From contig JACQFL010000048.1 of the NCBI GenBank assembly GCA_016200085.1, positions 15,350 through 79,349 on the forward strand: a stretch of 64,000 bases of DNA. Reading direction: 5' to 3'. A program made the translations under genes and the position numbers. Shown here piece by piece: positions 507 through 24,827 of the stretch (position 1 is its first letter; each line of letters begins with the position of its first letter). The DNA comes from Candidatus Rokuibacteriota bacterium. Lineage in GTDB: Bacteria > Methylomirabilota > Methylomirabilia > Rokubacteriales > CSP1-6. The notes under the pieces were generated by a model that had not been told where the DNA came from, ran no database searches, and saw only the letters and a list, made by a program, of their open reading frames with translations.

Positions 507-910
507 CGTCCTCTCCTTCCTGATGGGAGTGGTCGAGGGAGACCGCCCGCCCGGCGGGAGGCGTTCGAAGCGTTCCCCCGGCGCCGCGTCAGCGGCGGGC
601 GTGTCGCCAAGGAGAGCGGCAGGGTGCTCCGCGCGACGCCGGTCATCGTACACCAGACACCGGGCGCCACTTCCGACCGGTGTGGGTGAAGTGCAGGACG
701 CCAACAGTCGTCTCGTGGCAGAACCTGTCGAGCCGCCGACCGGCGTCTTCGTCTCGCGCAGCGCGCCGAGCCATGGACGGGTATCCGCCGACGAGTCCTG
801 GCCCCGGCGCTCGCCTGGCTCCGGCGGTGAGGCGGGTCTCGGGGAATAAAGCTGGCACCTGGGCTGTTCTCCGAGCACGCACGAATCTCACCTTGCCGCG
901 GGAGGGACGC

Positions 911-1405
911 ATGAAGGGTTGGGGTCGGACCGTGGGGCTGACGGCGACGGCACTGGTCATGGGCGTCGGTGGGGCGTGGGCGCAGCAGCCTGCCAAGGGC
1001 ACCCCGGCAACGGTGACGGGGCGCGTCGTCGACAACATCTGCATGCTCGGCATGGGGCTCAAGGGCGAGGGACATCGGGAGTGTGCGATCGGCTGCGACA
1101 AGGCCGGTGTGCGCATGGCGCTCCTGGACGAGAAGGCCAACGTGCTTTACACGCTGATGGCCGACAAGCCGTTCGTCGATCCCAACGCCCAGATCCGCGA
1201 GTACTTCGAGCGCGTCGTGACGATCAAGGGCGACCTCTACAGCGCGCCGGGCGGCCAGAAGGTCCTCGCCATCAAGGAAGTGCAGGCGGCCCAGGCGGGC
1301 GCGGCGGCGAACCCCTGCGCCGCGAAGAATCCGTGTGCCACGAAGAATCCCTGTGCGGCCAGGAATCCTTGCGCCGCCAAGAAGCCGGCCAGCGCGACGA
1401 AGTAG
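911..1405 (+). CDS. Secreted protein with a cysteine-containing N-domain and a C-terminal tandem NPCA(A/T)(K/R) hexapeptide repeat
   Basis: GGGAGGG Shine-Dalgarno sequence before the ATG at 911. Signal peptide MKGWGRTVGLTATALVMGVGGAWAQQ. C-terminus is NPCAAKNPCATKNPCAARNPCAAKKP. Confidence 0.7.
   Translation: MKGWGRTVGLTATALVMGVGGAWAQQPAKGTPATVTGRVVDNICMLGMGLKGEGHRECAIGCDKAGVRMALLDEKANVLYTLMADKPFVDPNAQIREYFERVVTIKGDLYSAPGGQKVLAIKEVQAAQAGAAANPCAAKNPCATKNPCAARNPCAAKKPASATK
1309..1386 (+). repeat. 18-bp in-frame tandem repeat encoding NPCAAK units (about 4 copies)
   Basis: aacccctgcgccgcgaag / aatccgtgtgccacgaag / aatccctgtgcggccagg / aatccttgcgccgccaag. Confidence 0.7.
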
Positions 1406-1474
1406 CCAGGCGAGGCCGGGTGCCCTCGGCGGACCGAAGCGAGGCAGGCGCCGCTTCGCTTCGGCCCTCGCCTC

Positions 1475-1752
1475 TCAGCACGCCGTCATCTCGACGACGT
1501 TCATCTCCGCCCCGTCACCCCAGGGCGTGCACGGCAGGCCACTCGCTTCCGACGCCCTCTCACCCGTGCTCGCGGGCGGTGACAGGATGCAGGCGATCAG
1601 CGGGTTGTCGCGCGAGGTGAGCGCGGTGATGCTGGCAGGGGGCGGCTCGGTCGCGGCGGGGACGATGGGCGGCGGCTCCGAGACGCTCGAGAGCACCTCG
1701 AGCGCCACGAAGAGGGTGCCGGCCGCCAGCGCGCTGGCCGTGACGATACGCA
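1475..1752 (-). CDS. Small hypothetical secreted protein (about 92 aa)
   Basis: Internal Met of minus ORF 1475..1867 (MRIVTASALAAGTLFVALEVLSS...), with a signal-peptide-like N-terminus. No homology recognised. Confidence 0.3.
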
Positions 1753-1962
1753 TCGTGGTCCTCGACGAAGAAACCAGGTGACCCGTGAGGATATTCCCTG
1801 GGCGCCGCCGCGCTCGCCAGAGGATTCCGGCGACGGCGCGCATTCCCTTCCACACGAGAAGGGCCAACGTGGCGGAGAGTCAACAGTGTCCCCGCTGACC
1901 GTCACGGTTCTCCTGAGCGCTCATCTCGTTCCTGGGCATCGTGTCTCCTTGCCCGAGGGGAC

Positions 1963-2409
1963 TCAAAGCGTGCGCTGATTCTCGCGATCGGCGCGCCAGC
2001 GCCGGCCAACCATGTCCGCTTCCTGCGGGGACACCGGAACCACGAAGAGCGACAGCAGCGTCCGCCCTGTTCGTAGAGGATGTACGTGGCCTGGCGCCGC
2101 CGCGCCTCCGCCAGTCGGGCGCCCAGCAGCTGGGAGGCCTTCGCGGGAGAAGTCGGGGACGGCCACGCGTACGCCGGCACGCTGCCGGAACCACCGCTCG
2201 ATTTCGCCACCATGGCTCGAGACCAGCTCCGCCGGTGACGCCTCCCGCGGCTGCCACCGCACGACGCTGCTGAGCTGTCGCTCTCGCCGAACGAGGCCCA
2301 GGCAGTCGCCGCACGTCGCCACGTGGCAATCGGCTGCCCACATCGCGTCGGCTGGCAGCTCCTCGTCGATGTAGGGGTGCAGGATGGCCTCGAATGCCGC
2401 GCAGGTCAT
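1963..2409 (-). CDS. Zinc-finger (zf-HC2, HxxxCxxC) anti-sigma-factor-like protein, a paralog of the anti-sigma at 7151..7933 that lacks the TM segment
   Basis: MTCAAFEAILHPYIDEELPADAMWAADCHVATCGDCLG... Shares the RAGVRVAVPDFS and LLSLFVVPVS blocks with the other anti-sigma. It is the C-terminal 148 aa of the spurious 583-aa ORF. Confidence 0.6.
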   Translation of the reverse strand: MTCAAFEAILHPYIDEELPADAMWAADCHVATCGDCLGLVRRERQLSSVVRWQPREASPAELVSSHGGEIERWFRQRAGVRVAVPDFSREGLPAAGRPTGGGAAAPGHVHPLRTGRTLLSLFVVPVSPQEADMVGRRWRADRENQRTL

Positions 2410-2493
2410 ACCTGACGATCTAACCCGTCCCGGCCGTGGTTTATTCCGGACGCAGTGGAATGGCGTCACACGGTCGCGTGTTCTGTTCTGTTG

Positions 2494-3711
2494 ATGACGT
2501 TCCGCCGCGCGCTCTTGCGGGGGGCATCGCTGCTGCTGGTGCTTGGCGGCACGGCTCCGGCGGGCGGAGATGCTGGCGCCGACCGGGCCTTTCTCGATCG
2601 GCACTGGCGGAGACCGGTCCCGCCACAGGGCGAGGCGCCGGCGCGGTGGTCCGCACTCGAGAAGTCGCTCGCGCCGCAGAGCTGCGGGGCCTGCCATCAG
2701 GCCCAGCTCGCCGACTGGAAGACGAGCGTCCACGCGCGCAGCTTGGGGCCGGGCGTCGCCGGCCAGCTGGTGGAGATGCGCCGGAGCGATCCCGAATCCT
2801 TCCGGCTCTGTCTGTCCTGCCATGGGCCCCTGGCGGAGCAGCAGCCGGACATCGAGCGCCACGGCCGCTCCGTGCCGAATCCCGAGTTCGACCCCGGCCT
2901 CCAGGCCGCGGGTCTCGCGTGCGCGGTGTGCCACGTGCGCCAGCACGAACGGTTCGGCCCGCCCCGCCGGATCGGGATGGCGAAGGTCACGACGCCGCGG
3001 CCATCGCTTCCCCATGGTGGGGTGACGCGGACGCCGGCGTTCTCGCAGTCGACGTTCTGCACGAGCTGCCACCAGTTCTCCTCCGATGGCTTCGCGCTGA
3101 ACGGGAAGCTGCTGGAGAACACCTACGAGGAGTGGAAGCTCAGCGCCGCCGCGCGCGTGCGCCGGCAGTGTCAGGACTGTCACATGCCCGAGCGCCGGCA
3201 CCTCTGGCGCGGCATCCACGATCCGGACATGGTGAAGTCGGGCGTCGAGATCCTCGCGACGACGGCCCAGCGCTCGTATCGGCCGGGTGACGAGCTTGTG
3301 GCCACGATCGTGGTCAGGAGCGTCGGGGTCGGCCACGATTTCCCGACCTACGTCACGCCACGCGTCGTCGTGCGCGCGGCCCTGATCGACAACACGGGGG
3401 CTGCCGTGGGGGGCAGTGGGCAGGAGTACGCCATCGCACGCGAGGTCACTCTCGACCTGTCGCGGGAGATCTCGGACACCCGCATCCCTCCCGGTGGCAG
3501 CGCGAGCTTTACGTACCGGCGACGGCTCGAGCGCAAAGGCCTTTCGCTCAGCGTGAGCGTCATGGTGTATCCCGACCATTTCTACACGGGGTTCTTCGAG
3601 TCGCTGCTCGCCTCCGGTGCGGGCGCAGGCGCCCCCCAGATCCGCGAGGCGCTCGCGGCGAGCCGGCGATCGGCCTTCGAGATCTTCCGGAAGACCGTGC
3701 GCCTGACGTGA
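2494..3711 (+). CDS. Pentaheme c-type cytochrome (five CxxCH motifs), secreted
   Basis: CGACH, CLSCH, CAVCH, CTSCH, CQDCH. Signal peptide MTFRRALLRGASLLLVLGG. A GTG at 2455 is an alternative start. Confidence 0.8.
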   Translation: MTFRRALLRGASLLLVLGGTAPAGGDAGADRAFLDRHWRRPVPPQGEAPARWSALEKSLAPQSCGACHQAQLADWKTSVHARSLGPGVAGQLVEMRRSDPESFRLCLSCHGPLAEQQPDIERHGRSVPNPEFDPGLQAAGLACAVCHVRQHERFGPPRRIGMAKVTTPRPSLPHGGVTRTPAFSQSTFCTSCHQFSSDGFALNGKLLENTYEEWKLSAAARVRRQCQDCHMPERRHLWRGIHDPDMVKSGVEILATTAQRSYRPGDELVATIVVRSVGVGHDFPTYVTPRVVVRAALIDNTGAAVGGSGQEYAIAREVTLDLSREISDTRIPPGGSASFTYRRRLERKGLSLSVSVMVYPDHFYTGFFESLLASGAGAGAPQIREALAASRRSAFEIFRKTVRLT

Positions 3712-3728
3712 CACGAGGGGAGAGACGG

Positions 3729-4082
3729 ATGCGCGTGCTCATGACGGCAGCTCTGATCGTGCTGCTGAGCGCGTGCTCGACATCGGTCGTCGCCCAGGAG
3801 CGGCGGGTCACCGCGGTTTCGCGCGCTGCGTTCGCGAAGGTCGTCGAGGCGCTCGAGCAGGCCATCACGGACCAGCACCTGGCCCTGGGCTGCCAGGCCG
3901 ATCCCCCGAAGGGCGCGGCGGCGCGCGGCATCGCCATCAAGGACAAGGGCACGACGACCGTCTCGTACATGCCACCGCCGACCGTGTTCGCACCCTACAG
4001 ACATCCGGGCGTGCGCGCCGTCGCCGCCGGGCTCGATCCGATCTTCAACGCGACCGTCGATCAGGCACTGGGCGGGCGCTGA
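3729..4082 (+). CDS. Small lipoprotein (lipobox LSAC), hypothetical
   Basis: MRVLMTAALIVLLSACSTS... in ORF 3708..4082. Confidence 0.55.
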   Translation: MRVLMTAALIVLLSACSTSVVAQERRVTAVSRAAFAKVVEALEQAITDQHLALGCQADPPKGAAARGIAIKDKGTTTVSYMPPPTVFAPYRHPGVRAVAAGLDPIFNATVDQALGGR

Positions 4083-4083
4083 C

Positions 4084-4617
4084 ATGCGGCAACGCCTCGC
4101 GCTCGTGGTTGTCGGAGGCGTGGCCGGCAGTGGGCTGTTCTGGCTGGTCCAGGTGATGACGGGCGGCCCGACCATCACCGCGTTCATGGGCGAACAGGTC
4201 GCTGCTGCCGGCGGATATCCGGCAACCCTGGCGCCCGCCTTCGGGTGGATCATCCATGTCGCCGTCGGTCTCTCGTACGCGTCACTGTTTGGGGTCGTCG
4301 TCGCCCCGCTCCGCTTGCTGCCGCGGGCCGCGCTGGCCGGAACGTCGCTCGTCATGGCAATCGTGTTCGGCTGGCTGACGACCGCCATCGCGCCGTCGGC
4401 CATCAGCGTGACGGTCGGGCTGCTCGGGCACCGGCGGTGGCCCGCCGAGATCTTTCCTTTGAATTGGGACGTCGGCTTGCCGTTCTGGAATCATCAGCTC
4501 TTCTTTCTCGCCAACTGGATCATGCAGGTGCTCGGCGGGATGGTCGTCCGTGCACGGGCGAGGTCGCGGCGGCGGAGCCTGATCACCGGGCGCGAGGGCC
4601 AGGGCGAGCGGGAATAA
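4084..4617 (+). CDS. Hypothetical integral membrane protein (4-5 TM helices)
   Basis: Hydrophobic segments. Starts 2 nt after the preceding stop. No family recognised. Confidence 0.55.
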   Translation: MRQRLALVVVGGVAGSGLFWLVQVMTGGPTITAFMGEQVAAAGGYPATLAPAFGWIIHVAVGLSYASLFGVVVAPLRLLPRAALAGTSLVMAIVFGWLTTAIAPSAISVTVGLLGHRRWPAEIFPLNWDVGLPFWNHQLFFLANWIMQVLGGMVVRARARSRRRSLITGREGQGERE

Positions 4618-4671
4618 ACGCCGGGGCCGGCGGGTTCAGGGGGAAACGTTTGTATCAAGGAGGTGAGTCGA

Positions 4672-4944
4672 ATGATCCGTCAGGTGATCGGCGGCATCGC
4701 GGTCGCGGCCGCGCTCGCCCTCGCGGGGACAGACGCTCTGGCCCAGCAGGCCAACCCGTGCGCGGCCAAGAACCCGTGCGCCACGAAGGCGGCCAATCCG
4801 TGCGCGGCCAAGAACCCGTGTGCGGCCAAGAAGCCGGCTGCTGCGAAGAACCCCTGCGCGGCCAAGAACCCCTGCGCGGCCAAGAACCCGTGTGCGGCCA
4901 AGAATCCTTGCGCCGCCAAGAATCCCTGCGCCGCCAAGAAGTAG
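4672..4944 (+). CDS. Secreted peptide made almost entirely of about 11 tandem NPCAAK-like hexapeptide repeats (about 90 aa)
   Basis: Strong AAGGAGG Shine-Dalgarno sequence. Signal peptide MIRQVIGGIAVAAALALAGTDALAQQ, then ANPCAAKNPCATKAANPCAAKNPCAAKKPAAAKNPCAAK(x5)K. Confidence 0.7.
   Translation: MIRQVIGGIAVAAALALAGTDALAQQANPCAAKNPCATKAANPCAAKNPCAAKKPAAAKNPCAAKNPCAAKNPCAAKNPCAAKNPCAAKK
4749..4938 (+). repeat. 18-bp tandem repeat array encoding NPCAAK units
   Basis: Repeated aa(c/g)cc(c/g)tg(c/t)gc(g/c)gccaag units. Confidence 0.75.
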
Positions 4945-5033
4945 GATCTTTCCGGAGCCGGCCGTGCCCCCCGGGACGCCGGGGGGCCGCCGCCCCGATT
5001 CCCGTCCGTGAGGATGATCTCGGCTCGCCGGGA

Positions 5034-6188
5034 ATGGTTCTGCCGCTCGCGGGTTTGATGCACGTCGTGGTTCTTGCGCGTCGCCTTCTGTTGAAAGTCG
5101 CCACGGTGTTGGTCCTCCTTCCGGCGCTTGCCATCAGTCCCGCATTCGCGCACGACGGTCCCCCCGCTGGCGCCGTCGTACCCAGCGAGCGCATCGATCC
5201 GCGCCAGGTCTATCCCTTCGGCGTCGTCGCCGGCGGGGGCGGACACTTCCACGTCCTGCAGGTCATGCCAGGGGAGCGACGCGTCTTTGCCGGCACCCAT
5301 CTGGGGCTGTTCGTGAGCGAAGACCGAGGGCTCACGTGGCGTCTCGTCGCGCCTCGCTTCAGCGGCGTCGACGTCCACGGCCTCGCACGCGATGCGGCCA
5401 CGGGAGCGTTGTATGCGGCGACCCACGGACAGGGCCTTCTCGTCAGCGAGGACGGTGGCACCCGGTGGCGGGACGGCTCGGCGAGCCTGCCCGGCCGCGA
5501 CCTGCACGCCCTCGCCCTCGATGCCCATGATCGGGGCACGATCTACGTCTGGTCCGTTGGCCATGGTCTCTTCGCTCGGCGAGGTCGCGTGCGGATGTGG
5601 GAACGCCTGGCGGGGCGAGAGGCCCTCACCCAGGTGGAGAGCCTCGCCATCCATCCACAGAATTCGCGGCGGCTCTACGCGGGAACCGCGGCCGGGGTGC
5701 TTGTCAGCGAGGACGGCGGCCGCCGGTGGATGCTACCGCCCGGCGGCCTCGAGCGTCGGACCGCCGGCGTCGCGGTCGTCCCGAGCCGGCCTGACATGGT
5801 CCTCGCCGCGACGTTCGACGGGGTCTTCGCCGGTCACGCAGCCGGCGCGGACTGGAAGCCGCTCGAGGCAGCGCCCTCGTGGTGGGGCCCGATCGTGGGG
5901 TTCGCGTTCGTCGGCGATCGGCCCGACACCGTCTTTGCCGTCTCGCACGAGGGACCGGTCGTCATGCGCGCGGTGTGGGATGGCCCCTGGATACCTCTCG
6001 CGGCGCGACCGCCGGCCACGAGTCGGCGAATCAGCGCCCGCCCTTCGGGGCCGGTCCACGAGCGCGGACCAACCGCAGTGGTGAGCACCCGGCCGTCACG
6101 GCCGATCAAAACCACGGTGGGCGTCGCCCGGACGCCATACGCCCGGGCGACCCGCATGTCGGGATCGAGCACCACGGGAGCGCTGTAG
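5034..6188 (+). CDS. BNR/Asp-box repeat (sialidase-like / Ycf48-like beta-propeller) secreted protein. The 3' end is uncertain.
   Basis: Repeated SxDxGxTW motifs (SEDRGLTW, SEDGGTRW, SEDGGRRW). Signal peptide (...KVATVLVLLPALAISPAFA). A TTG about 57 nt downstream of the ATG is an alternative start. The tail beyond about 6000 overlaps the convergent TlpA-like gene and may not be coding. Confidence 0.6.
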   Translation: MVLPLAGLMHVVVLARRLLLKVATVLVLLPALAISPAFAHDGPPAGAVVPSERIDPRQVYPFGVVAGGGGHFHVLQVMPGERRVFAGTHLGLFVSEDRGLTWRLVAPRFSGVDVHGLARDAATGALYAATHGQGLLVSEDGGTRWRDGSASLPGRDLHALALDAHDRGTIYVWSVGHGLFARRGRVRMWERLAGREALTQVESLAIHPQNSRRLYAGTAAGVLVSEDGGRRWMLPPGGLERRTAGVAVVPSRPDMVLAATFDGVFAGHAAGADWKPLEAAPSWWGPIVGFAFVGDRPDTVFAVSHEGPVVMRAVWDGPWIPLAARPPATSRRISARPSGPVHERGPTAVVSTRPSRPIKTTVGVARTPYARATRMSGSSTTGAL

Positions 6189-6553
6189 CCACGCGCCTTC
6201 ACCTCGCGGGCGACAGTCGTGGCGTCTTCACCGACATCGACGAGCACCGCGGTGAAGCCGTCCGGGGCGAGCTCCTTCGCCATCGCGTCGATCGAGGGCA
6301 ACTCCCTCGCGCAGTGCGGTCACCAGGTGGCCCAGAAATAGAGCATGACGAGATGGCCGCGGAACTGATCCAGCGACACCGTGTGCCCGGTGACGTCGCG
6401 CAGGCTGAAGGCCGGCGCCGTCACGGGCTCGGCCGCGGGCGCCACCCCCAGCGCGTCCCACAGCGCCGAGTCCGTCGTGGCACCCGCCGCGGCGGAGGCG
6501 ACGAACAGGACGCCGAGGACCACACTCGCCCAGGGGGGTCGCCGCGTGATCAC
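5834..6553 (-). CDS. TlpA/thioredoxin-like (redoxin) selenoprotein, periplasmic. In-frame TGA at 6320..6322 read as Sec (U-P-H-C). The 3' end is uncertain.
   Basis: ORFs 6320..6553 and 5834..6301 are in the same frame, separated only by a TGA: ...LVMLYFWATW-U-PHCARELPSIDAMAKELAP...ATPTVVLIGRDGRV. This is the thioredoxin WCxxC motif with the first Cys coded as UGA. Signal peptide MITRRPPWASVVLGVLFVASAAAGA. Confidence 0.65.
6293..6309 (-). other. SECIS-like hairpin downstream of the Sec-UGA of the TlpA-like gene
   Basis: UGA CCG CAC UGC G CGAGGG-AGUUG-CCCUCG. A 6-bp stem with a 5-nt loop, starting 10-11 nt after the UGA. Confidence 0.5.
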
Positions 6554-7134
6554 GCTTGAACCTCCCGCATCGAGTGGGTGGGGCGCGCTCTCACGTCGAT
6601 CGCGAGACGGCTGAGGATCTCGAGCGAGCGATCGTTGAACGGATCCACGCCGGGATTGGCGAGGCGGTGCTCGGCGAGGCGTGTGATCTTTCCCTCCTGG
6701 AGCCGCTCGATCTGGGGAGTGAACGCCTGGAATACCAGATTGACGAACCGCACGAGGCGCGCGTCACCCCGGGTTTCGTCGATGCGAAACCGACGCGCAT
6801 ACCGTTTGAGAGCCGCCCCGCTCTCGTACCGGTCTCCGATCGCCCAGAGGTTCAGGGTGAACAGCGCCTGCGGCCAGCCGTCACGCGCCATGGAGATGGC
6901 GACGAGATGCACGGTGTGATCGGGGAACAGCCTTACCGTGTGGAAATGTCCGGCCTCGTGCGTCGCGCCGTCGTGACGGTGAAAATATGACTGGCAGCCC
7001 GTGTCGCGGTCGAAGACCCCGTAGTCGTCCGGATACAAGGTCCAGGGCGTCACGTCGCGACCGCCGCAGGCGAGCTCCATCACCGTCGTGCCGTCACGCT
7101 CGAGCGCGGTGAGCAGCTGGCGAAGCTCGGTCAT
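6550..7134 (-). CDS. Hypothetical cupin-like protein (HRHDG...EAGHFH His cluster)
   Basis: Internal Met MTELRQLL of ORF 6550..7221. ATGA overlap with the downstream TlpA-like gene. Confidence 0.5.
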   Translation of the reverse strand: MTELRQLLTALERDGTTVMELACGGRDVTPWTLYPDDYGVFDRDTGCQSYFHRHDGATHEAGHFHTVRLFPDHTVHLVAISMARDGWPQALFTLNLWAIGDRYESGAALKRYARRFRIDETRGDARLVRFVNLVFQAFTPQIERLQEGKITRLAEHRLANPGVDPFNDRSLEILSRLAIDVRARPTHSMREVQA

Positions 7135-7150
7135 GGCCCTGGCCACGGGA

Positions 7151-7933
7151 TCAGAGACGGTTGCGCTCGGCACGCTCGAGGCGGAGCCGGTCGGCGCACT
7201 CGAGGAGCGCGTCGTAATCAAGCGCCGACACCAGGCCGAAGACCGCGCGGCCGTCCGTCCACGCCACCGTCCGATAACCCTTCAGGTCTTTCGCGAAGTA
7301 CTCCTGCCCGCGGAAGGTCACAGGTCGGCCGGTCAGGTGCGCGTCGGGGCCGCTGACCGGCACGACGAACACCGACAGGAGCGTCCGGCCCTTCTCGTAG
7401 AAGATGTAGGCCACTTTGCGCTCGTGTGCCTCGGCGAGGCGGCCGCCGATCAACTGGATGCCCGCCGGCGAGTAGTCCGGAACGGCCACGCGAAGGCCGG
7501 CCCGCTGCTGGAACCACTGCTCGAGCTCGCCGCGGTCATTCGAGGCGAGCTCCACGGGCCGCTCGATCTGGGCGTAGGCGATGTGCTTGTCGACGAGCTC
7601 GGCCAGGAGCGGGGCGGAGGGCCGGCTCGCGGGCAAGAGGACCGCCACGAGGAGCGCCGCCACCGCGGCGGCGAGCGGCGCCACGAGCCAGGGGCGCCAC
7701 GCGACGCGGCGCTGCTCGCGGCGCACGAGCGCGGTGATCTTCGCGCGGAACTCCGGCGACGCCGCTTCCCGGGGCTGGCGGCGGAGGACCTCGCGGAACT
7801 GGCGCTCGCGCCCGAGGAGACCGGCGCAGTCCCGGCACCCCGCGAGGTGCGCGTCCGCCGCCGCCATCGCCTCCACCGGCAACTCGCCATCGAGGTAGGG
7901 ATGCACGCTCGCCGCGAATTCTCTGCAGCTCAT
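7151..7933 (-). CDS. Anti-sigma factor: zf-HC2 (HxxxCxxC) N-domain, one TM segment, periplasmic C-domain
   Basis: MSCREFAASVHPYLDGELPVEAMAAADAHLAGCRDCAG... 4-nt overlap with the upstream ECF sigma gene. Confidence 0.8.
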   Translation of the reverse strand: MSCREFAASVHPYLDGELPVEAMAAADAHLAGCRDCAGLLGRERQFREVLRRQPREAASPEFRAKITALVRREQRRVAWRPWLVAPLAAAVAALLVAVLLPASRPSAPLLAELVDKHIAYAQIERPVELASNDRGELEQWFQQRAGLRVAVPDYSPAGIQLIGGRLAEAHERKVAYIFYEKGRTLLSVFVVPVSGPDAHLTGRPVTFRGQEYFAKDLKGYRTVAWTDGRAVFGLVSALDYDALLECADRLRLERAERNRL

Positions 7934-8523
7934 TCCTCGTCCCTCACGTATCCATGCTCGCGCGCCAGCCGCGTGAGGGCCTGCCGCAGCAGGTGCCGGC
8001 CCCGCGACAGGCGGGACATCACGGTGCCCACCGGGCAGCCGACGACGTCGGCGACCTCCCGATAGCTGAGGCCCTCGAGGTCCACGAGCACCACGGCCTC
8101 GCGGAACACCAGGGGCAGGCCTTTGAGCGCCCGATCGACGTCACCATGCAGGACGGTCTGGAAGAACGCTTCCTCCGGGTTGACGAACCCCATCGACGTC
8201 GCGCTGGGCTGGCCGGTCTCCCACACGGCCGCATCGGGCTCCAGGACCTCACGCCCGTCCTTGCGCAGCCGATTCAGGAACACGTTTCTGAGAATCGTGA
8301 GGAGCCAGGCGCGACAGTTGGTCCCCGGGTTGAACCGGTGAAAGTTGCGGAACGCCCGCAGCACCGCCTCCTGGACCACATCCTCGGCCTCCCCCCGGCT
8401 GCGCGTCAGACGAAGCGCCGTCTGGTAGAGCGTCTCGAGATGGACGAGGGCCGTCCGCTCGAACTCGCTGCCCTCCGATGCCGCGGTCCGCCAGGGAATC
8501 GGAAACCCTCCTGTCGTGAGAAC
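7930..8523 (-). CDS. ECF (sigma-70 family, RpoE-like) sigma factor
   Basis: Regions 2 and 4 are recognisable (LVHLETLYQTALRLT..., LPLVFREAVVLVDLEGLSYREVADVVGCPVGTVMSRLSRGRHLLRQ). The GTG at 8523 is a guess. The ORF extends to 8682. Confidence 0.7.
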   Translation of the reverse strand, partial: VLTTGGFPIPWRTAASEGSEFERTALVHLETLYQTALRLTRSRGEAEDVVQEAVLRAFRNFHRFNPGTNCRAWLLTILRNVFLNRLRKDGREVLEPDAAVWETGQPSATSMGFVNPEEAFFQTVLHGDVDRALKGLPLVFREAVVLVDLEGLSYREVADVVGCPVGTVMSRLSRGRHLLRQALTRLAREHGYVRDEE

Positions 8524-8566
8524 ACCACGACCCGCGCGGATATTCCGGCCTCGGGGGTGGCCCCGC

Positions 8567-9655
8567 TCAGGGAGCCGTACCGAGGATCGTCGTCGGGTGA
8601 AACGCCGCCCAGGCGAACCAGAACGCATCGACGTGAGGGATCGCACGCAGCCGGCGTCCCGCCAGCGGCCCCTTGACCCCACGGCCGAGCAGGTTCCAGG
8701 TCGTGCCGGTCTCCCGGTCGCGGAAGCCCCCCTCGTTTGCCTCGAATGTCAGGCTCTTTCCGTCGAGCATTCGACTGTAGACGGCGGTGGCGCCGACCGC
8801 GCGCGACCGCTCGATCCGCGCATCGTCGAGCGCCGAGAGGGCGCCCGGCTGAAAGAAGATCACGAGCGCCTCGCGGTCGATGGCGTCGTGCAGCACCCGC
8901 CGCTCGGCCAGAATCGGCCAGGGGTACGCCTTGGCCGTCTCGCCGATCTTCACGCCGACCACGCGCTCCTTCGGTGGCCGACGCGTATCCGGCCGACCGT
9001 TGAAGAGGAACGGACGAAGCTCCGGCTGATCGTATGACCCGTAGGGATTGGCGCCGTACTGGCGCTGGTGTCCCGTCTCCCGCGACAGGACCTTGCCGTC
9101 CGGGTGGGCCGCCTTCCAGTCCGCGAACGCGATCGTGTTGGCGGGCACCAGCGCGAGCCGCGTCCCCGCACGCTGGCCGACGAGGGCCCGACCTTCCATC
9201 TGCGCCCAGAGCGAGTGGCTCTGACGGTCGTACATGACGAGGTCGCTCTTGTACACCTTGCCCGACGTCCCGAAGTCGAGCGTCACGTCTCCGACCACCC
9301 GGTCGAACGCGATGCCCGAGTTGCGCAGCGGACAGAAGGTCACGACGACAGGCTTGCCCCCGACGGTGTCGTTCACGATCTCGTGCCACATGAGAATCTG
9401 GAGCGGATACGCCCGCGCATCGCCGTTGATCTCCAGCGCGAGCACGGGCTCCTGGGGCACCAGCCACGCGGCTTGACGCGCGGCGATGAACGCCGGTCGA
9501 TCGATCGCCGGGATGCCGTCTGGAGGCGGGCCGCCGGGGATGATCTCGTCGAGCGGGACCAGCGCCTTGCTCTCGTCGGTCCTGAGCCGCTCGGCGGTCG
9601 CCGCCGAAGCGATCAGGACGGTCAGCGCCACCATGATCGGTACGCGTTTCAACAT
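8567..9655 (-). CDS. DUF3179 family secreted protein
   Basis: Internal Met MLKRVPIMVALTVLIASAATA of ORF 8567..10048. Confidence 0.6.
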   Translation of the reverse strand: MLKRVPIMVALTVLIASAATAERLRTDESKALVPLDEIIPGGPPPDGIPAIDRPAFIAARQAAWLVPQEPVLALEINGDARAYPLQILMWHEIVNDTVGGKPVVVTFCPLRNSGIAFDRVVGDVTLDFGTSGKVYKSDLVMYDRQSHSLWAQMEGRALVGQRAGTRLALVPANTIAFADWKAAHPDGKVLSRETGHQRQYGANPYGSYDQPELRPFLFNGRPDTRRPPKERVVGVKIGETAKAYPWPILAERRVLHDAIDREALVIFFQPGALSALDDARIERSRAVGATAVYSRMLDGKSLTFEANEGGFRDRETGTTWNLLGRGVKGPLAGRRLRAIPHVDAFWFAWAAFHPTTILGTAP

Positions 9656-10129
9656 CTGCCGGCTCACGTGGTCCCTCCCTCGGGCGCGTCCGGCCTTACG
9701 GCGCCTGCACGGGCTCGCTCCGGTGCGACGCATCGATGGTCCGGGAGGACGTTCCAGGCGACGCGGCGGGTGACAGCGTGTCCATCGTCGCCTCCTTGCA
9801 GCGCCCTTCTCGGCGCCGTCACTGTAGAACACGCGGCGGGCCACCTCCATTCCCGCTCGGTCGCGAATCGCCATCGTTTCAAGCTCGGCAGGGGGCGGAT
9901 CGTGCGACTCGGAGAGTCGCCGTAGCGGAAGTCGCTGACGACGATGGGGTTTGTGCCCCGAAACGCCATCGGAGGAGCGGCTGGAGAGAAGACCCGGGAC
10001 GTTCGCGCGGAGGGGTCCGGAGAGCGGAAAGATCGGGTGACGCTGCACGATGTCGAGGTTAGCGGCCGGTCATCGGCCCCGGGGCGCCCGGCGGTCGTGG
10101 ACAGATCGTTTCACGCGTCGTGGCGCTGA

Positions 10130-11020
10130 TTAGACCGTCCGCTCCCGCTCGCCGAAGAGGCCGGTGGGGCGGATGACGAGCAGGCCGATCAGGAACACGA
10201 AGCCGTAGAGATCCTTGTAGGCGGCCGAGAAGAACACCGAGCCCAGGGCCTCGATGAGGCCGAGGAGCACGCCGCCGACGACCGATCCCAGGATGGAGCC
10301 GAGGCCCCCGATCACGATGATCTCGAAGCCCTTGAACGTCGAGATCGCCCCGCCCTCCGGATAGACGAGGAAGTCCGGCGCGAGGAGGGCCCCGGCCGCC
10401 GCGGCCAGGGCCACGCCCACGCCGAACGCGAGCATGTCGAGTCGGAGCACGTCGACCCCGGCGGTCTGGATGCCGACGCGGTTCTGGGCGGCGCCACGGA
10501 ACGCCGTCCCGATCCACGTGCGCTTCACGAGCAGGTAGAAGAGCGCGAGCAGCGCCAGCGTGGCGATGAGGGCCACGAAGCGGTTGCCGGAGATGGGCAG
10601 GGTGAGCAGCGTGGTCGGGCGCGCGTAGTCCCGCGGCGCGTACTGGTTGGGCCCGCCGAGCACGACGGCGAGGTTCCGGAAGAGGACCATGAGCGCGATG
10701 GTGACGATCGTCGCGTACTCGTCACGCCGCTCGATCCCCCGCACGTACATCGGGCGCAGGAGCACGCGCTGCGTGACGAGCCCGAGCACGAAGACCGCCC
10801 CCATCGTGAGCGGCAGCGCGATCCACCAGCGCCCCGGGCCGAGCACGGTGGCCAGCAGCGCGTACTGCACGTAGCTGCCGATCATGTAGAACTCGCCCAT
10901 GGCCCAGTTGATCATCTTCATGATGCCGTAGATGAACGTGATCCCGAGCGCCATCAGGCTGTAGATGACCCCGATGACGAGCCCCGAGAGCACGTACTGG
11001 GACAGGAGGAACGCGTCCAC
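10130..11020 (-). CDS. livH: Branched-chain amino acid ABC transporter permease (LivH-type)
   Basis: 296-aa polytopic protein with a typical LivH signature. Confidence 0.8.
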   Translation of the reverse strand: MDAFLLSQYVLSGLVIGVIYSLMALGITFIYGIMKMINWAMGEFYMIGSYVQYALLATVLGPGRWWIALPLTMGAVFVLGLVTQRVLLRPMYVRGIERRDEYATIVTIALMVLFRNLAVVLGGPNQYAPRDYARPTTLLTLPISGNRFVALIATLALLALFYLLVKRTWIGTAFRGAAQNRVGIQTAGVDVLRLDMLAFGVGVALAAAAGALLAPDFLVYPEGGAISTFKGFEIIVIGGLGSILGSVVGGVLLGLIEALGSVFFSAAYKDLYGFVFLIGLLVIRPTGLFGERERTV

Positions 11021-11023
11021 GCC

Positions 11024-12244
11024 CTACTTTTTGGGGGCCATCAGCAGGTCGCCCGTCTTCAGCTCGGGCGGGAAGATGATCTTGGCCTCGGTGAAGACCT
11101 GCTCGGGCCGCGTGTACTGCATGAAGAGCATCGGCGGGGTCCACTGCTGCCAGTACGGGCCCTCGCCGCGGGTGAAGCTGATGGTGCCGTTCCAGCCCTC
11201 GAACTTGCTGGCGAGCAGGGCCTTGACGAGGCTCTCGCCCGCCTCGCTCCTGGCCGCGTTCAGCGCGTCGGCGAGCAGCGTGATCTGGGCGTAGCCGTTC
11301 AGCGCGCCGTAGACGGGATCCTCCTTGAACTGCTCGCGGTACTTCGTGCGGAACGCCTCGCCCCGCGGGGTCAGCTTCATCGTCGGGTGGTAGTAGGTGA
11401 TGAAGGTGACGTACGTGCCCTTCTCGCCGAGGTTCTTCCAGAACTCGGGACGGGCGGGCAGGTCGTAGGATACGAGCATCGGGGTGGCGGGGAAGAGCGC
11501 GACGTCGGAGGCCTGCTTGAGGATGAGGTACACGGGCGTGCCGACGCCCACGTTGATCAGGAGGTCCGGCTTCCAGCTCTTGATCTCCAGCAGCTGCGGG
11601 GTGAGGTCCACCACCGCCCGGTCGAACATGACCGTCTTGAGCTCGGCCGCGACGTCCATGGTCTTGAAGAGCTTCTTGGTGTCCTCGACCACGCCGACGC
11701 CGTAGTCGGTGTTCTCGGCCAGCACCGCTACCCGCTTGAAGCCCTGCTGCTTGATCCAGCGGTTCCAGATCGTCACGCGATCGGGGTCGATCACGTGGGT
11801 GCGGAACGTGTACGCGAGGTGCCGCTCGGTGATGCCCTTGGCGGAGGCCTGGGTGGAGAAGACGGGGATCTTGAACTGCTCGGCCAGGTCCTGCACGGCG
11901 CCCATCACCGAGCTGTGGAACTGGCCGATGACGGCCACGGCCCTGTCCTGGCTGGCCAGCTTCCGGAAGCCGGCCACGCCCTTCTCCGGCGTGCCGGAGT
12001 CGTCCTCGACGACCAGCTCGATCTTCCGCCCTCCGAGCACCCCGCCGCGGGCGTTCACGTCGTCGGCGGCCATCTTGGCGCCGCGGACGATGAACTGCCC
12101 GGCCGCGGCATCGCCGGGCGGCGAGAGCGGGGTCAGGACGCCGATCTTGACCGGATTCTGAGCGAGCGCCGGCGCGACGAGCCCCACACCGGCGATGGCC
12201 GTGAGCACCGCGACCGCACTGGCAAGCCAGCGATGACGTCTCAT
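11024..12244 (-). CDS. Branched-chain amino acid ABC transporter substrate-binding protein (LivK/LivJ family)
   Basis: Signal peptide, then a periplasmic binding protein type I fold. Confidence 0.8.
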   Translation of the reverse strand: MRRHRWLASAVAVLTAIAGVGLVAPALAQNPVKIGVLTPLSPPGDAAAGQFIVRGAKMAADDVNARGGVLGGRKIELVVEDDSGTPEKGVAGFRKLASQDRAVAVIGQFHSSVMGAVQDLAEQFKIPVFSTQASAKGITERHLAYTFRTHVIDPDRVTIWNRWIKQQGFKRVAVLAENTDYGVGVVEDTKKLFKTMDVAAELKTVMFDRAVVDLTPQLLEIKSWKPDLLINVGVGTPVYLILKQASDVALFPATPMLVSYDLPARPEFWKNLGEKGTYVTFITYYHPTMKLTPRGEAFRTKYREQFKEDPVYGALNGYAQITLLADALNAARSEAGESLVKALLASKFEGWNGTISFTRGEGPYWQQWTPPMLFMQYTRPEQVFTEAKIIFPPELKTGDLLMAPKK

Positions 12245-12359
12245 GTCGATCCTCCCCGGCGAGCCTTCGCGTGCCCGGCGCTCGAGCGCCGAGCGCCCGG
12301 CGGAAGGCCGCCATCCGCGCGGATTCTACCCGATGCGCGAGCGCCTCGTCTCCGGGCCC

Positions 12360-13142
12360 TCACGCCATGTCCGGTAACCCGGTATGGGCGGTGATCCCGC
12401 CGTCGACCACGATCGCGGCTCCCGTGATGAAGGAGGACTCGTCGGAGGCGAGGAAGCACACGGTGCTGGCGATCTCGTCCGGCTCGCCGATCCGGCCGAT
12501 GGGATGCGCGGCCGCGTTCCGACGCCGGAAGTCCTCCGCGCGATCCTTGCCGAGGAGCTCTGCGGCGCGGGTGTTGATGGCGCCCGGGCACACGCAGTTG
12601 ACCCGGATGCCGTCGCGGGCGTTCTCCCGCGCCGCGGAGCGGGTGAGGTTGATCACGCCGGCCTTGGCGGCGTTGTAGGACGACAGGCCGTAGTCGCCGG
12701 CGATCCCGGAGATCGAGGCCGTGTTGACGATGACGCCGCGCCCCTGGCGGCGCATGAGGGGCAGGCAGTACTTCATGCCGAGGAACGTGCCCGTCAAGGT
12801 GACGGCGATCACGCGGTTCCAGCTCTCGAGCGAGATCTCGTGGAGCGGCGCGGCCTCCGCCAGGCCGGCGTTGTTGACGACGATGTCCAGGCCACCGAAG
12901 GTGTCGAGCGCCAGCTGGATGGTGGCCTGGACGCGCTCGGGGACGGCCACGTCCATCTTGATCGCCACCGCGCGCCCACCGCCGGCCACGATGGCCGCCG
13001 CGACCTCATCGGCGCGTCGGCCGCTCAGGTCCGCGACGACCACCGCCGTGCCGTGACCGGCCAGGCGGCGTGCGGTCGCCGCGCCGATCCCGGAGCCGGC
13101 GGCCGTGACGATGGCGATCCGGCCCCCGAGCGAGGCGGTCAT
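12360..13142 (-). CDS. SDR family oxidoreductase (FabG-like 3-oxoacyl-ACP reductase)
   Basis: MTASLGGRIAIVTAAGSGIG...NAAK, the C-terminal 260 aa of the spurious ORF 12360..14240. Confidence 0.75.
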   Translation of the reverse strand: MTASLGGRIAIVTAAGSGIGAATARRLAGHGTAVVVADLSGRRADEVAAAIVAGGGRAVAIKMDVAVPERVQATIQLALDTFGGLDIVVNNAGLAEAAPLHEISLESWNRVIAVTLTGTFLGMKYCLPLMRRQGRGVIVNTASISGIAGDYGLSSYNAAKAGVINLTRSAARENARDGIRVNCVCPGAINTRAAELLGKDRAEDFRRRNAAAHPIGRIGEPDEIASTVCFLASDESSFITGAAIVVDGGITAHTGLPDMA

Positions 13143-13147
13143 GGCGC

Positions 13148-13921
13148 TCACACCGCCATGATGTGGTATCCGCAGTCCACGTAGATCACCTCGCCGGTGA
13201 TCCCCGAGGCGAGCGGGGAGGCCAGGAACGCCGCGGTGTCGCCGATCTCCTTCAGGGTCACGTTGCGGCGCAGCGGCGCCTTCTCGGCGGCGTGCTGGAG
13301 CATGCCGGTGAAGCCCTTGATCCCGCGCGCGGCCAGCGTGTTCACCGGGCCGGCGGAGATGGCGTTGACCCGGATGCCGCGCGGGCCGAGATCGGCGGCC
13401 AGGTAGCGCACGCTCGCCTCGAGCGAGGCCTTGGCCACGCCCATGACGTTGTAGTTGGGGGCGACCTTCTCGCTGCCGTAGTAGGTCATCGCGATCACCG
13501 AGCCCGGGCCGGACTTCTCGAGCAGGGGCGCCGCCGCGCGGGCGAGCCCGACCAGCGAGTAGGCCGAGATCTCGTGGGCGGTGAGGAAGCCGGCGCGCGA
13601 GGTGGCCGTGAAGGAGCCCTCGAGGTCGGCCCGCTCGGCGTAGCCGATGGAATGCACCAGGAGCGCCAGGGCGCCGAGCTCGCGCTCGAGGCCGGCGAAG
13701 ACCGCCGCGATCTCGGCCTCGGAGGTGACGTCGCAGGGGAACAGGAGCGAGCCGGGCAGCGTTGCGGCAAGCTCGGCGACGTTCTCGCGCAGCCGCTCGC
13801 CCTGATAGGTGAAGGCCAGACGCATGCCGGCCGCCGCGAGCGACTGGGCGATGCCCCAGGCGATCGAGCGCTTGTTGGCGACGCCGAAGACGACGCCGGT
13901 CTTGCCCGTGAGATCGATCAT
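13148..13921 (-). CDS. fabI: Enoyl-ACP reductase (NADH) FabI
   Basis: Matches E. coli FabI along its full length (AFTYQ, NYNVMGVAKASLEASVRY, NAISAGP). Confidence 0.9.
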   Translation of the reverse strand: MIDLTGKTGVVFGVANKRSIAWGIAQSLAAAGMRLAFTYQGERLRENVAELAATLPGSLLFPCDVTSEAEIAAVFAGLERELGALALLVHSIGYAERADLEGSFTATSRAGFLTAHEISAYSLVGLARAAAPLLEKSGPGSVIAMTYYGSEKVAPNYNVMGVAKASLEASVRYLAADLGPRGIRVNAISAGPVNTLAARGIKGFTGMLQHAAEKAPLRRNVTLKEIGDTAAFLASPLASGITGEVIYVDCGYHIMAV

Positions 13922-13942
13922 GAAGCCTCCGTGGGACCGGGC

Positions 13943-14338: not shown

Positions 14339-14339
14339 G

Positions 14340-15604: not shown

Positions 15605-15683
15605 GGTCAGAGGGTCGACTCCAGGGCCCGCGGCGTACGCTTCACGAGCCGGGATTCTAGCGCGGGACGTGTAGAATCAGGCC

Positions 15684-16754: not shown

Positions 16755-16784
16755 GCCCGACCGGCCGGGAGATCGGGAGCGCGC

Positions 16785-18797: not shown

Positions 18798-18870
18798 CCC
18801 CGCGCGTGTCACCGATCTATTGGAGGACGTGTTCGGCTCCGTTCACCGCTGAGGTCTTCCGGGAGGCCGC

Positions 18871-20111: not shown

Positions 20112-20112
20112 A

Positions 20113-20889: not shown

Positions 20890-20895
20890 ACCTCG

Positions 20896-20916
20896 GAGGG
20901 GGGTTTCGCCCCCCTT
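20896..20916 (+). terminator. GC-rich hairpin after the permease gene
   Basis: gaGGGGGGtttcgCCCCCCtt. No clear U-tract. Confidence 0.4.
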
Positions 20917-24797: not shown

Positions 24798-24827
24798 GAC
24801 CCCGCGAGGTGTATACTCCGGAGAGTC

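Follow-up and report, generated by a model that had tools for sequence, protein, structure and literature searches.

In a stretch of 64,000 nucleotides from a Candidatus Rokuibacteriota bacterium (GenBank assembly GCA_016200085.1, contig JACQFL010000048.1, positions 15,350 to 79,349 of the forward strand; in the following called the window) we analysed a set of genes of about 9 kb that encodes exported cysteine-repeat proteins, a five-haem cytochrome and a predicted selenoredoxin behind one type of stress-sigma promoter. This island points to an undescribed periplasmic thiol-haem system, whose substrates are probably either thiol-seeking metals or sulfur/selenium compounds. We are highly confident that the region from about 843 to 9853 is one co-regulated unit, and it is strongly indicated that this unit represents a single predicted regulon under a SigR/SigH-like sigma factor of the extracytoplasmic function (ECF) type and its zinc-binding anti-sigma (ZAS) factor. 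Regarding its function we propose, with a probability of roughly one half, a stress-induced relay from haem to (seleno)thiol that would act on the cysteine-repeat proteins. An initial annotation, made from the DNA letters alone, had already seen one functional unit and not a random neighbourhood at 680–6600; every feature it listed is present at or near the place it assigned, and both the synteny and the shared promoter described below speak for its view.

As the window has a G+C content of about 69%, which results in many spurious open reading frames (ORFs), genes were fixed by homology, by G+C content at third codon positions (GC3) and by conservation in relatives. The relatives (L numbers in the following) come from contigs with orthologs of NPCAAK1 or of the cytochrome, among them a cytochrome-anchored set of 80 genome loci, and from a repeat-anchored set of 120 metagenome loci, which were collected with a DNA pattern for three NPCAAK repeat units and of which the 72 of at least 3 kb were counted.

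The evidence for a regulon starts with the promoters. The consensus of the SigR/SigH group is GGAAT-N18-GTT, and the exact pattern GGAAT-N17-19-GTT is present eight times between 843 and 9853 and not once in the remaining 54 kb of the window, so that the shared promoter motif which the initial annotation had proposed to look for does exist. In 500 runs of a first-order Markov simulation the mean was 0.13 sites per 10 kb and the maximum three. All eight sites are located on the coding strand immediately 5' of an island gene, and as predicted promoters they would serve the genes for the repeat proteins NPCAAK1 and NPCAAK2, a secreted 92-aa ORF with conserved cysteines, the anti-sigma paralog antiS2, a BNR propeller protein and a DUF3179 protein as well as two operons:

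843–868 (+): ECF-type motif GGAATAAAGCTGGCACCTGGGCTGTT, 5' of NPCAAK1; kept 5' of the orthologs in L023, L082, L085, L087, L115, L139, L209 and L210
1797–1772 (−): ECF-type motif GGAATATCCTCACGGGTCACCTGGTT, 5' of the secreted 92-aa ORF (1753–1475), its end 19 nt from this ORF
2447–2422 (−): ECF-type motif 5' of antiS2, ending 13 nt before the ATG
2457–2482 (+): ECF-type motif 5' of the operon for cytochrome, DUF302 lipoprotein and membrane protein; kept 5' of the cytochrome in L151 and L209
4611–4636 (+): ECF-type motif 5' of NPCAAK2
5031–5055 (+): ECF-type motif (N17 spacer), where the BNR gene begins
8546–8521 (−): ECF-type motif GGAATATCCGCGCGGGTCGTGGTGTT, predicted to be autoregulatory, 5' of the sigma gene; in the same place at the ECF orthologs in L082, L115, L151 and L210
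9853–9828 (−): ECF-type motif 5' of DUF3179, at the right edge of the island

The motifs of antiS2 and the cytochrome stand back to back, and the same geometry is found in L151 (between ECF and cytochrome genes), L001, L002 and L149. In 12 related loci 24 of 38 motif sites lie directly 5' of homologs of island genes (32 of 46 if the window is added). Start/stop overlaps join sigma factor, anti-sigma factor, DUF6969 protein and selenoredoxin into one operon, and cytochrome, DUF302 lipoprotein and membrane protein into the other. Since the motifs are confined to 843–9853 and housekeeping genes with a higher GC3 begin at 10130, the unit extends further to the right than the 680–6600 of the initial annotation and takes in the ECF/anti-sigma pair, DUF6969 and DUF3179. 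The GC3 amounts to 0.78–0.92 for the island genes (843–9853) and 0.90–0.98 for the flanking housekeeping genes (10130–23000), and the lower island value suggests weaker codon adaptation or a foreign origin.

Two regulators head the first operon:

7930–8500 (−): ECF sigma factor of a SigH/SigR-like group, start codon uncertain; TIGR02937 with 87.5 bits (cut-off 42.9)
7151–7933 (−): membrane-spanning anti-sigma factor with an RsrA-like ZAS domain (HLAGCRDC) and an extracytoplasmic domain

Their genes overlap by 4 nt. The sigma factor has both sigma2 and sigma4 regions, and its best specific NCBIfam model is TIGR02947 (SigH_actino) with 160 bits, below the equivalog cut-off of 251. There is no in-frame ATG, GTG or TTG between the promoter and the conserved part, and an ATT after GGAGGG is the sole candidate for its start (about 8497, −). 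The initial annotation had placed the pair (7151 to about 8500) next to the unit; it is present there, but belongs inside it. Similar to the actinobacterial systems SigR-RsrA and SigH-RshA (ECF12-type) are the match to the SigH_actino model, the HxxxCxxC motif of the ZAS domain, the GGAAT-N18-GTT promoter, a sigma gene predicted to control itself and the thiol-redox targets. Different from these regulons are the membrane-spanning anti-sigma factor with its extracytoplasmic domain, the targets, which are nearly all exported, and the host from the Rokubacteria, and the NPCAAK proteins, the pentahaem cytochrome, DUF302, DUF3179 and DUF6969 have no counterpart in the actinobacterial regulons. A sensor domain common to the anti-sigma factors of Rokubacteria and Proteobacteria was considered as well and dropped as no similarity was found.

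The cysteine-repeat proteins and a small secreted ORF are encoded as follows:

911–1405 (+): NPCAAK1, signal peptide followed by an about 100-aa domain and a tail, predicted to be disordered, with four NPCA[AT][KR] units
4663–4944 (+): NPCAAK2, composed of little more than a signal peptide and, behind it, nine NPCA[AT]K units
1475–1753 (−): ORF for a small secreted protein (92 aa; signal peptide, two conserved cysteines), called as a gene on the Logan contig

At the DNA level the repeats are 18-bp tandem arrays with 77% matches, the units of which differ from one another almost solely at synonymous third positions, indicating selection on the repeat peptide and not on the DNA. Because of these synonymous differences and the persistence of the peptide motif in loci of 42–74% GC, non-coding DNA or an assembly artefact could be ruled out as the source of the repeats. 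Neither Pfam nor NCBIfam holds a model for the repeat proteins or for the NPCAAK1 domain. The family of the latter (NP1) comprises 336 matches, all unnamed, with 0–6 C-terminal repeats, and C44, H55, C58 and C62 of its domain are invariant. In an AlphaFold2 (AF2) model of NPCAAK1 the core reached a predicted local distance difference test score (pLDDT) of 70–91 and the tail about 40, and the NPCAAK tails are accordingly predicted to be disordered; for the domain an OB-fold-like structure may be assumed, the fold search having returned weak OB-fold matches only (best E 2.5e-3). In 8 million full-text papers a search for the motif strings gave nothing relevant, and neither this search nor one for DUF6969 turned up a description of the cluster. 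L209 retains both the DNA and the N-terminal peptide of the 92-aa ORF, which probably belongs to the regulon as a genuine gene. Among the loci the repeat varies between NPCAAK and NPCAPK, with HNPCSMK and MNPCNPCAMK in Zetaproteobacteria. In five zetaproteobacterial loci (L037, L039–L042) the repeats contain many His, Met and Cys residues (HNPCSMKGDMK, MNPCNPCAMKHKM), and two or three repeat genes together with a repeat-bearing SoxA-like cytochrome lie 5' of the pentahaem gene.

The second operon contains the haem protein:

2494–3711 (+): periplasmic pentahaem c-type cytochrome with five CxxCH motifs; the ORF opens at 2455, 2494 being the probable start
3708–4082 (+): lipoprotein derived from DUF302 with an LSAC lipobox; an in-frame deletion has removed about 36 aa of the domain core
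4084–4617 (+): polytopic membrane protein of 177 aa, no Pfam or NCBIfam family match

The cytochrome is 100% identical to a 405-aa protein of a Candidatus Rokubacteria metagenome-assembled genome, and its haem motifs (C77, C119, C156, C202 and C239, each as C-xx-CH) are invariant in the 20 sequences compared. At its C-terminus an Ig-like beta-sandwich (264–372) was modelled by AF2 with a pLDDT of 80–93; as the model is good for this sandwich only, no structural conclusion on the haem pocket was drawn from it. A comparison of the family profile with the PDB identified the MccSep structure 9wt8 (E 5e-12) and the pentahaem c552 of Thermochromatium tepidum (5ze8, E 5.7e-7). MccSep (ExtKL) from Geobacter sulfurreducens is a periplasmic polysulfide/selenite reductase performing a haem-driven reduction of S–S and Se–S bonds, with an active site formed by haem 2 (ligands His122 and Cys239) and Sec325 on an Ig-like loop (structure PDB 9wt8; bioRxiv 10.1101/2025.11.18.688581).

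MccSep and the cytochrome of the window are both periplasmic and combine five CxxCH motifs in an N-terminal helical cap with a C-terminal Ig-like sandwich. They share a homologous loop G-H-x-[FI]-P-x-x-[Y/U]-x-T-P pointing at haem 2, which reads GHDFPTYVTP here (GHxFPTYVTP in the family) and GHSIPDGU-PTP in MccSep, and haem 2 is also conserved. The catalytic residues are not: Cys239, the distal ligand of haem 2 in MccSep, aligns to Leu220 (L, I, M or V in the family; the alignment could be shifted by 1–2 residues, but no Cys is nearby), and Sec325 aligns to Tyr299, which is essentially invariant among about 85 family members without any Cys or stop codon. Likewise nearly invariant in these members are K218, a hydrophobic residue at 220, H294, P297 and P302, and the family has an N-terminal motif of its own, F..RHW..P..PQG. 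As the positions of the catalytic Cys and Sec are both replaced and the score for NF040886 (53.1 bits) is below the cut-off of 250, the protein has the MccSep architecture without being a member of the MccSep family, and its assignment as a true MccSep/ExtKL was rejected. The family also differs from MccSep in being co-encoded or fused with thioredoxin-fold proteins, in being co-encoded with NPCAAK proteins and in its distribution over Rokubacteria, Proteobacteria, Nitrospinota and other groups, whereas MccSep occurs in Desulfobacterota and Nitrospirota. A pentahaem cap with a beta-sandwich is also found in the T. tepidum c552, which was the top Foldseek match of the cytochrome (about 14% identity, on the low-confidence AF2 model, the fold search being uninformative apart from this match), and in PtdA, but for these proteins there is no reported link to cysteine-repeat proteins.

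An exhaustive profile search in a library clustered at 50% identity resulted in 390 clusters at E ≤ 1e-30, and among the 150 best representatives five (P0241, P0273, P0261, P0243 and P0247) are fusions of the cytochrome to a thioredoxin-fold domain in three architectures, with an N-terminal TlpA-like, an N-terminal Thioredoxin_7 or a C-terminal Thioredoxin_7 domain, and about 35 of the 150 carry extra c-type haem domains. That the cytochrome has a working partner in a CxxC/UxxC redoxin like that of the ECF operon is indicated most strongly by these fusions. Regarding the other two genes of the operon, the initial annotation had listed a lipoprotein, and the lipobox is present; the protein itself is a DUF302 derivative with an internal deletion. 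It gives no Pfam match to DUF302 (PF03625), while its 155-aa ortholog in L209 matches DUF302 and aligns on both flanks of the gap. A DUF302 gene follows the cytochrome in L001, L002, L087/88, L151 and L209, and orthologs of the membrane protein adjoin cytochrome/DUF302 in L001, L151 and L209.

Two genes contain an in-frame TGA and are predicted to encode selenoproteins:

6553–5834 (−): exported TlpA/ResA-like selenoredoxin, WATW-U-PHC, TGA at 6320–6322; last gene of the ECF operon
506 to before 1, running off the window (−): AhpD/CMD 'peroxidase-related' selenoprotein, RCAY-U-TTFHG, TGA at 261–263; TIGR01926 105.7 vs 81.8 bits

The redoxin, whose gene overlaps that of the DUF6969 protein by a GTGA start/stop, matches the Redoxin family with E 7e-25, and its best NCBIfam model is ResA (93.5 bits), every equivalog cut-off being missed. 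AhpC-TSA and Redoxin domains span the TGA with homology on both sides. At this site the seven closest orthologs have a stop codon and 11 more distant ones a Cys, and in L082–86 gene calls are split there. The AhpD-like gene also shows homology across its TGA and the same pattern. A stop in close and Cys in distant orthologs is the classical signature of a selenoprotein. Hairpins follow both UGAs with folding energies like those of shuffled GC-rich sequence (the one of the redoxin about 13 nt after the UGA, z 0.45). The redoxin resembles TlpA, ResA and DsbE in its thioredoxin fold, in the WxxW-CxxC context and in having a signal anchor; it is distinguished by its UxxC, its place in an ECF operon and its relatives that are fused to the pentahaem cytochrome. 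These fusions suggest that haem, rather than CcdA/DsbD, may be its electron donor. The initial annotation had the region bracketed by two selenocysteine genes, and both TGA genes are indeed present. The left one, however, has no GGAAT-N18-GTT-type motif at its 5' side and only a sporadic linkage to the island, so it is treated as a neighbour whose membership in the regulon is not demonstrated.

A comparison of synteny, also proposed by the initial annotation, revealed that the linkage is kept in relatives with a shuffled gene order. In L082–84 the order is ECF, anti-sigma, split (Sec) redoxin, a 102-aa protein and NP1, in L085 split (Sec) CMD, BNR, NP1 and split (Sec) redoxin. L087/88 show a small ZAS protein divergent from NP1-cytochrome-DUF302, L209 has NP1 and further on cytochrome-DUF302-membrane protein, and in L151 the ECF operon is divergent from cytochrome-DUF302. 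Beyond these, secreted proteins with NPC repeats are encoded directly 5' of the cytochrome in Beta-, Gamma-, Alpha- and Zetaproteobacteria, Nitrospinota, Gemmatimonadota, 'Deltaproteobacteria' and Rokubacteria, with a distance of only 7–10 nt between repeat gene and cytochrome start in L018 and L087, and in L008 (Thermoanaerobaculia) the repeat follows just 3' of the cytochrome. At least three repeats within 3 kb of the cytochrome were found in 20 of 62 loci with at least 35% identity and in none of 18 with distant homologs. A pairing of NPCAAK-type repeats with this cytochrome family that is conserved across several phyla is thus strongly indicated. In the repeat-anchored set the partners were:

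SoxA/TsdA-like monohaem domain, usually fused to the repeats: 40 of 72 loci
DUF6969: 30 of 72
DUF302: 23 of 72
ECF sigma factor: 22 of 72
DUF3179: 17 of 72
Pentahaem cytochrome: 16 of 72
YeeE/Sulf_transp: 15 of 72
Cupredoxin-like protein: 14 of 72

Clustering of the ORFs in 144 repeat-bearing loci gave ECF sigma factors (62), ZAS anti-sigma factors (13), TlpA-like redoxins (12), periplasmic thioredoxins (10), CcdA (9), glutaredoxins (8) and dihaem cytochromes (8). The SoxA/TsdA-like domain of the relatives matches PF21342 (E 1.8e-6, 28.2 bits vs 27) and TIGR04484 (E 9e-8) and has a motif MxQxCxxxPM with a conserved Cys; a single-sequence search of the PDB gave no significant match for it. L018 (Azoarcus sp. 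Aa7), L056 (Gallionella), L122, L159 and L160 have genuine sets of MerR, MerT, (MerF) and MerA genes on the flanks of the module. The order in L018 is merA-merT and, divergently, merR-NPCAAK-cytochrome, with repeat and cytochrome genes on the same strand as merR. MerR-family regulators with metal-binding cysteines are present in 14 loci. For the window, tblastn with MerA, MerT, MerR, MerF and heavy-metal-associated domain (HMA) queries found no match, and PLSDB contains no plasmid-borne homologs.

Some further observations concern the surroundings of the module in relatives. The mer operon of L018 (7152–9871) consists of merT-merA with no merP in between; 3–5 kb from it are a MerF-like gene and a gene for another, exported HMA protein. 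In L209 (2807–3547, +) a TGA-split pair was assigned by eye as GrdB/PrdB-like, and in L087/88 (L087 7384–9598) an ArsP-type permease split in two lies beside a SelD-like AIRS gene and a LysR regulator. Near the module in Proteobacteria we found a conserved protein of about 250–300 aa, by eye YiiX/permuted papain-like (L018 19443–20360; L049 1095–1838; cluster cl21, seven loci), and an HD-GYP protein with C-terminal zinc ribbons recurs there as well.

Taken together we propose the following mechanism. The NPCAAK tails would form flexible periplasmic thiolate arrays that capture thiophilic species, which may be Hg(II), Cu(I), or selenite/polysulfide as S-X-S adducts. The pentahaem cytochrome, MccSep-like but without the haem-ligating Cys and the Sec, would exchange electrons with a thioredoxin-fold partner, here presumably the UxxC selenoredoxin, and the latter would reduce disulfides or adducts on the repeat proteins and thereby restore free thiolates. 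Thiol-reactive stress would inactivate the ZAS anti-sigma factor, so that the sigma factor is released and the set switched on, and antiS2 would be a leftover of an earlier sigma/anti-sigma copy. The periplasmic electron transfer and detoxification suggested by the initial annotation is plausible and consistent with the neighbours. A doubtful extension of the relay is a new type of redox pathway in the periplasm, in which the repeats, the Tyr-type cytochrome and the (seleno)redoxin act together so that electrons from the respiratory chain, carried by haem, power thiol/disulfide or S-X-S reactions of a dedicated multi-cysteine carrier, the Cys/Sec pair that MccSep has in cis being supplied in trans.

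For metals or metalloids as the trigger speak the mer and MerR neighbours, the repeat variants with many His, Met and Cys residues, the cupredoxin-like partner and the putative OB-fold domain with its Cys and His residues, whereas the SoxA-like fusion, YeeE and the MccSep ancestry favour a sulfur/selenium carrier. Computation alone does not separate the two, and metals rather than chalcogens as the substrate is a tentative idea which we would not bet on. Like MerP of the mer operons and CusF, the NPCAAK proteins would be exported Cys-based binders, the module adjoins genuine mer genes in at least five loci, and the NPCAAK1 domain may be OB-fold-like as is CusF, although the match is weak. Unlike a mer system the window has no mer gene, no HMA fold and no GMTCxxC, and the module contains haem proteins where mer has none. 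A second comparison is offered by the bufferins and the Scs copper system, in which small Cys-rich proteins with signal peptides are induced by ECF sigma factors under metal stress and occur together with periplasmic thiol reductants. The island differs from bufferins in lacking MNIO (DUF692), DUF2063 and DoxX among its genes, in its repeat and in having haem proteins instead of a modifying enzyme.

Several points weigh against the relay. The promoters are motif predictions, with the specificity of the sigma factor assumed from the known SigR/SigH consensus, and the regulators are not orthologous across phyla, the sensor domains of the anti-sigma factors being unrelated. The cytochrome lacks both catalytic residues of MccSep, and its haem domain was modelled with a pLDDT below 50 and is unreliable. 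About two thirds of the cytochrome loci have no repeats nearby, and the commonest partner of the repeats is the SoxA/TsdA-like domain (40 of 72) and not the pentahaem cytochrome (16 of 72); the former is absent from the window, as are YeeE, the cupredoxin-like protein and any mer, cop or other metal gene. A TlpA/ResA-like redoxin and CcdA are also needed for cytochrome c maturation. Finally, several copies in the window look damaged (the DUF302 deletion, CPLR in DUF3179, run-on tails of BNR protein and redoxin), and the island may be partly decayed in this genome.

The alternative that survives best, though we regard it as rather improbable, is a protein-bound carrier in the manner of Sox. The NPCAAK cysteines would hold sulfane sulfur, thiosulfate or selenium covalently, as SoxY does, a SoxA/TsdA-like domain would load them oxidatively, the cytochrome would unload them reductively and YeeE/YedE would transport the product through the membrane, the whole serving chalcogen acquisition or dissimilation instead of the handling of metals. 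Such a carrier would fit the 40 of 72 loci in which repeats are fused to a SoxA/TsdA-type domain with a conserved Cys in MxQxCxxxPM, but this match is barely over the Pfam threshold, was not significant in the PDB search, and the window has neither this domain nor YeeE. The relation of the cytochrome to a polysulfide/selenite reductase would fit as well, yet the catalytic Cys and Sec of that enzyme are absent. Sulf_transp (YeeE) in 15 of 72 loci has as best NCBIfam model the selenium-linked YedE/FdhT, and a SelD-like gene and several selenoproteins lie beside the module in Rokubacteria, where selenoproteins may be merely common. Rhodanese, SQR, SoxB/YZ and Dsr were not found among the neighbours recurring in at least five loci, and the linkage to mer and MerR is left unexplained. 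In relation to SoxAX-SoxYZ and TsdA the likeness would be a SoxA/TsdA-type haem domain beside, and in the related loci fused to, a flexible Cys-presenting peptide; the difference is a hexapeptide repeat with many cysteines against the single C-terminal GGCGG of SoxY. SoxB, SoxX and SoxYZ were not found, and the SoxA-like domain is restricted to the relatives.

Next, NPCAAK proteins could be sacrificial redox buffers which are re-reduced by redoxin and cytochrome in a general envelope response to thiol oxidation, with no specific substrate. The SigR/SigH-like sigma factor and the RsrA-like ZAS anti-sigma factor would be expected in such a response, and AhpD-like, thioredoxin, glutaredoxin and TlpA-like neighbours recur, as do fusions of the cytochrome to thioredoxin folds. 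We consider it unlikely, as it explains neither the metal-type MerR regulators, the mer genes, the cupredoxin-like protein and YeeE nor the His/Met-rich repeats and the conserved loop of the cytochrome, which resembles an active site. Very unlikely in our opinion is a respiratory or cytochrome-maturation cluster, with an ordinary electron carrier, a redoxin for haem attachment and NPCAAK proteins as passengers. Although ResA is the best NCBIfam model of the redoxin, CcdA recurs and about 35 of 150 cytochrome relatives have extra haem domains, no CcsBA or Ccm genes were seen, stress-type ECF control would be unusual for respiratory genes, and the repeat genes, which lie 7–10 nt from the cytochrome, have the same promoter type and in 40 of 72 loci form fusions with a haem domain, do not look like passengers. 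A chance neighbourhood of exported proteins is hardly credible, since the varying gene order and the linkage of AhpD-like, BNR and membrane protein genes in few loci only are outweighed by the eight motifs confined to the island, their retention in relatives, the adjacency of NPCAAK and cytochrome genes across phyla and the thioredoxin-fold fusions.

Each of the folds can be assigned to a known superfamily, and thiol-stress regulons under ECF control have been described before. What is added is a family of NPCAAK-type proteins outside the Pfam and NCBIfam models and its tie to a large cytochrome family, whose sole characterised relative, MccSep, was described in 2025. Periplasmic thiols usually receive their electrons from cytoplasmic NADPH through DsbD/CcdA, and to our knowledge all known periplasmic disulfide-reducing routes proceed via these proteins. 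If true, a relay from haem to thiol would be an alternative to DsbD/CcdA by which Hg(II), selenite or the like could be reduced or sequestered in the periplasm independently of MerA, in a pathway spanning several phyla including iron oxidisers and Rokubacteria. The module would then add to the systems by which mercury, copper or selenium is handled in soils, groundwater and iron mats. The version in Rokubacteria offers a worked regulon in an uncultured phylum with eight predicted promoters, one sigma and one anti-sigma factor, and as Azoarcus sp. Aa7, Bradyrhizobium centrolobii, Paramagnetospirillum caucaseum and Mariprofundus are cultured carriers, the hypotheses are directly testable.

The second anti-sigma-like gene needs a separate discussion:

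1963–2409 (−): antiS2, anti-sigma paralog without transmembrane segment, HxxxCxxC intact (HVATCGDC); zf-HC2 PF13490 23.5 vs 22.2 bits

The initial annotation had called it an orphan soluble anti-sigma factor. The HxxxCxxC motif, the missing transmembrane segment and the absence of an adjoining sigma gene are as described, but instead of a conserved second regulator antiS2 is probably a frameshifted relic. It is 56% identical to the anti-sigma factor at 7151–7933 over aa 1–62, lacks the transmembrane segment and about 40 C-terminal residues, has two internal deletions and, owing to non-triplet indels, is out of frame relative to its paralog at about 100–125. Its GC3 of 0.78 is the lowest in the region, the gene finder did not predict it on the Logan contig, and no homologs were found among 5.8e9 proteins. 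In L209, the closest relative (cytochrome 85% identical), the ortholog is a 58-aa stub with one zinc-ligand Cys changed to Ser and no promoter motif. A conserved family of orphan regulators finds no support in these data, and a duplication reaching beyond the anti-sigma fragment was rejected, the DNA match being 199 bp only. In L151 the sigma operon stands back to back with the cytochrome promoter and in L210 NP1 and the anti-sigma gene are convergent; most simply, a sigma/anti-sigma copy would formerly have lain here and lost its sigma gene by deletion.

There is a smaller chance that antiS2 still works as a soluble anti-sigma factor or decoy, which would sense thiols in the cytoplasm and provide negative feedback. 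It is mainly the perfect ECF-type motif ending 13 nt upstream that keeps this chance alive, together with the intact HxxxCxxC, the similarity of its first 62 residues to the cognate anti-sigma factor and the unrelated small ZAS protein that occupies a similar divergent position beside NP1-cytochrome-DUF302 in L087/L088. The non-triplet indels, the two deletions, the low GC3, the missing database homologs, the ortholog reduced to a stub that has lost a zinc Cys and the motif, and the missing gene call all speak against a working protein.

The remaining genes of the island are:

5034/5058–6188 (+): exported BNR/Asp-box beta-propeller, F510_1955-like, with three SxDxGxxW boxes
6550–7221 (−): DUF6969 protein without signal peptide, His-rich motif HRHDGATHEAGHFH, PF22308 E 3e-34
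8567–9667 (−): exported DUF3179 protein, PF11376 E 1e-105

The BNR protein reached 111.7 bits with NF045728 (cut-off 175) and is thus a BNR propeller but not an equivalog, and homologs are encoded near NPCAAK/cytochrome genes in L002, L029, L085, L149 and L198. Its ORF (+) and that of the selenoredoxin (−) converge and overlap by about 352 nt (5834–6188). Both proteins have C-terminal tails of about 55–60 aa without homology, while their homologs end 5–19 aa past the conserved domain, and it looks as if a deletion near 6005 had removed both stop codons. GC3 is uninformative on this overlap because the antisense frames share their wobble positions. For the DUF6969 protein a single-sequence PDB search gave no significant match. 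The DUF3179 protein has CPLR where CPLC is found in L018 and L049, and between its promoter at 9853 and its start at 9667/9655 lies a possible upstream ORF of 29 codons (9696–9785, −) with a good Shine-Dalgarno sequence.

An Rfam scan detected no RNA family inside the island and a tRNA scan no tRNA in the 64-kb window. The gene at 16755–18797 (+), a few kb away from the island, codes for a protein of 680 aa that has a DUF255/DsbH thioredoxin domain, and a thiamine pyrophosphate (TPP) riboswitch (RF00059) was identified at 24824–24924 (+) with 56.3 bits against a gathering score of 54.3.

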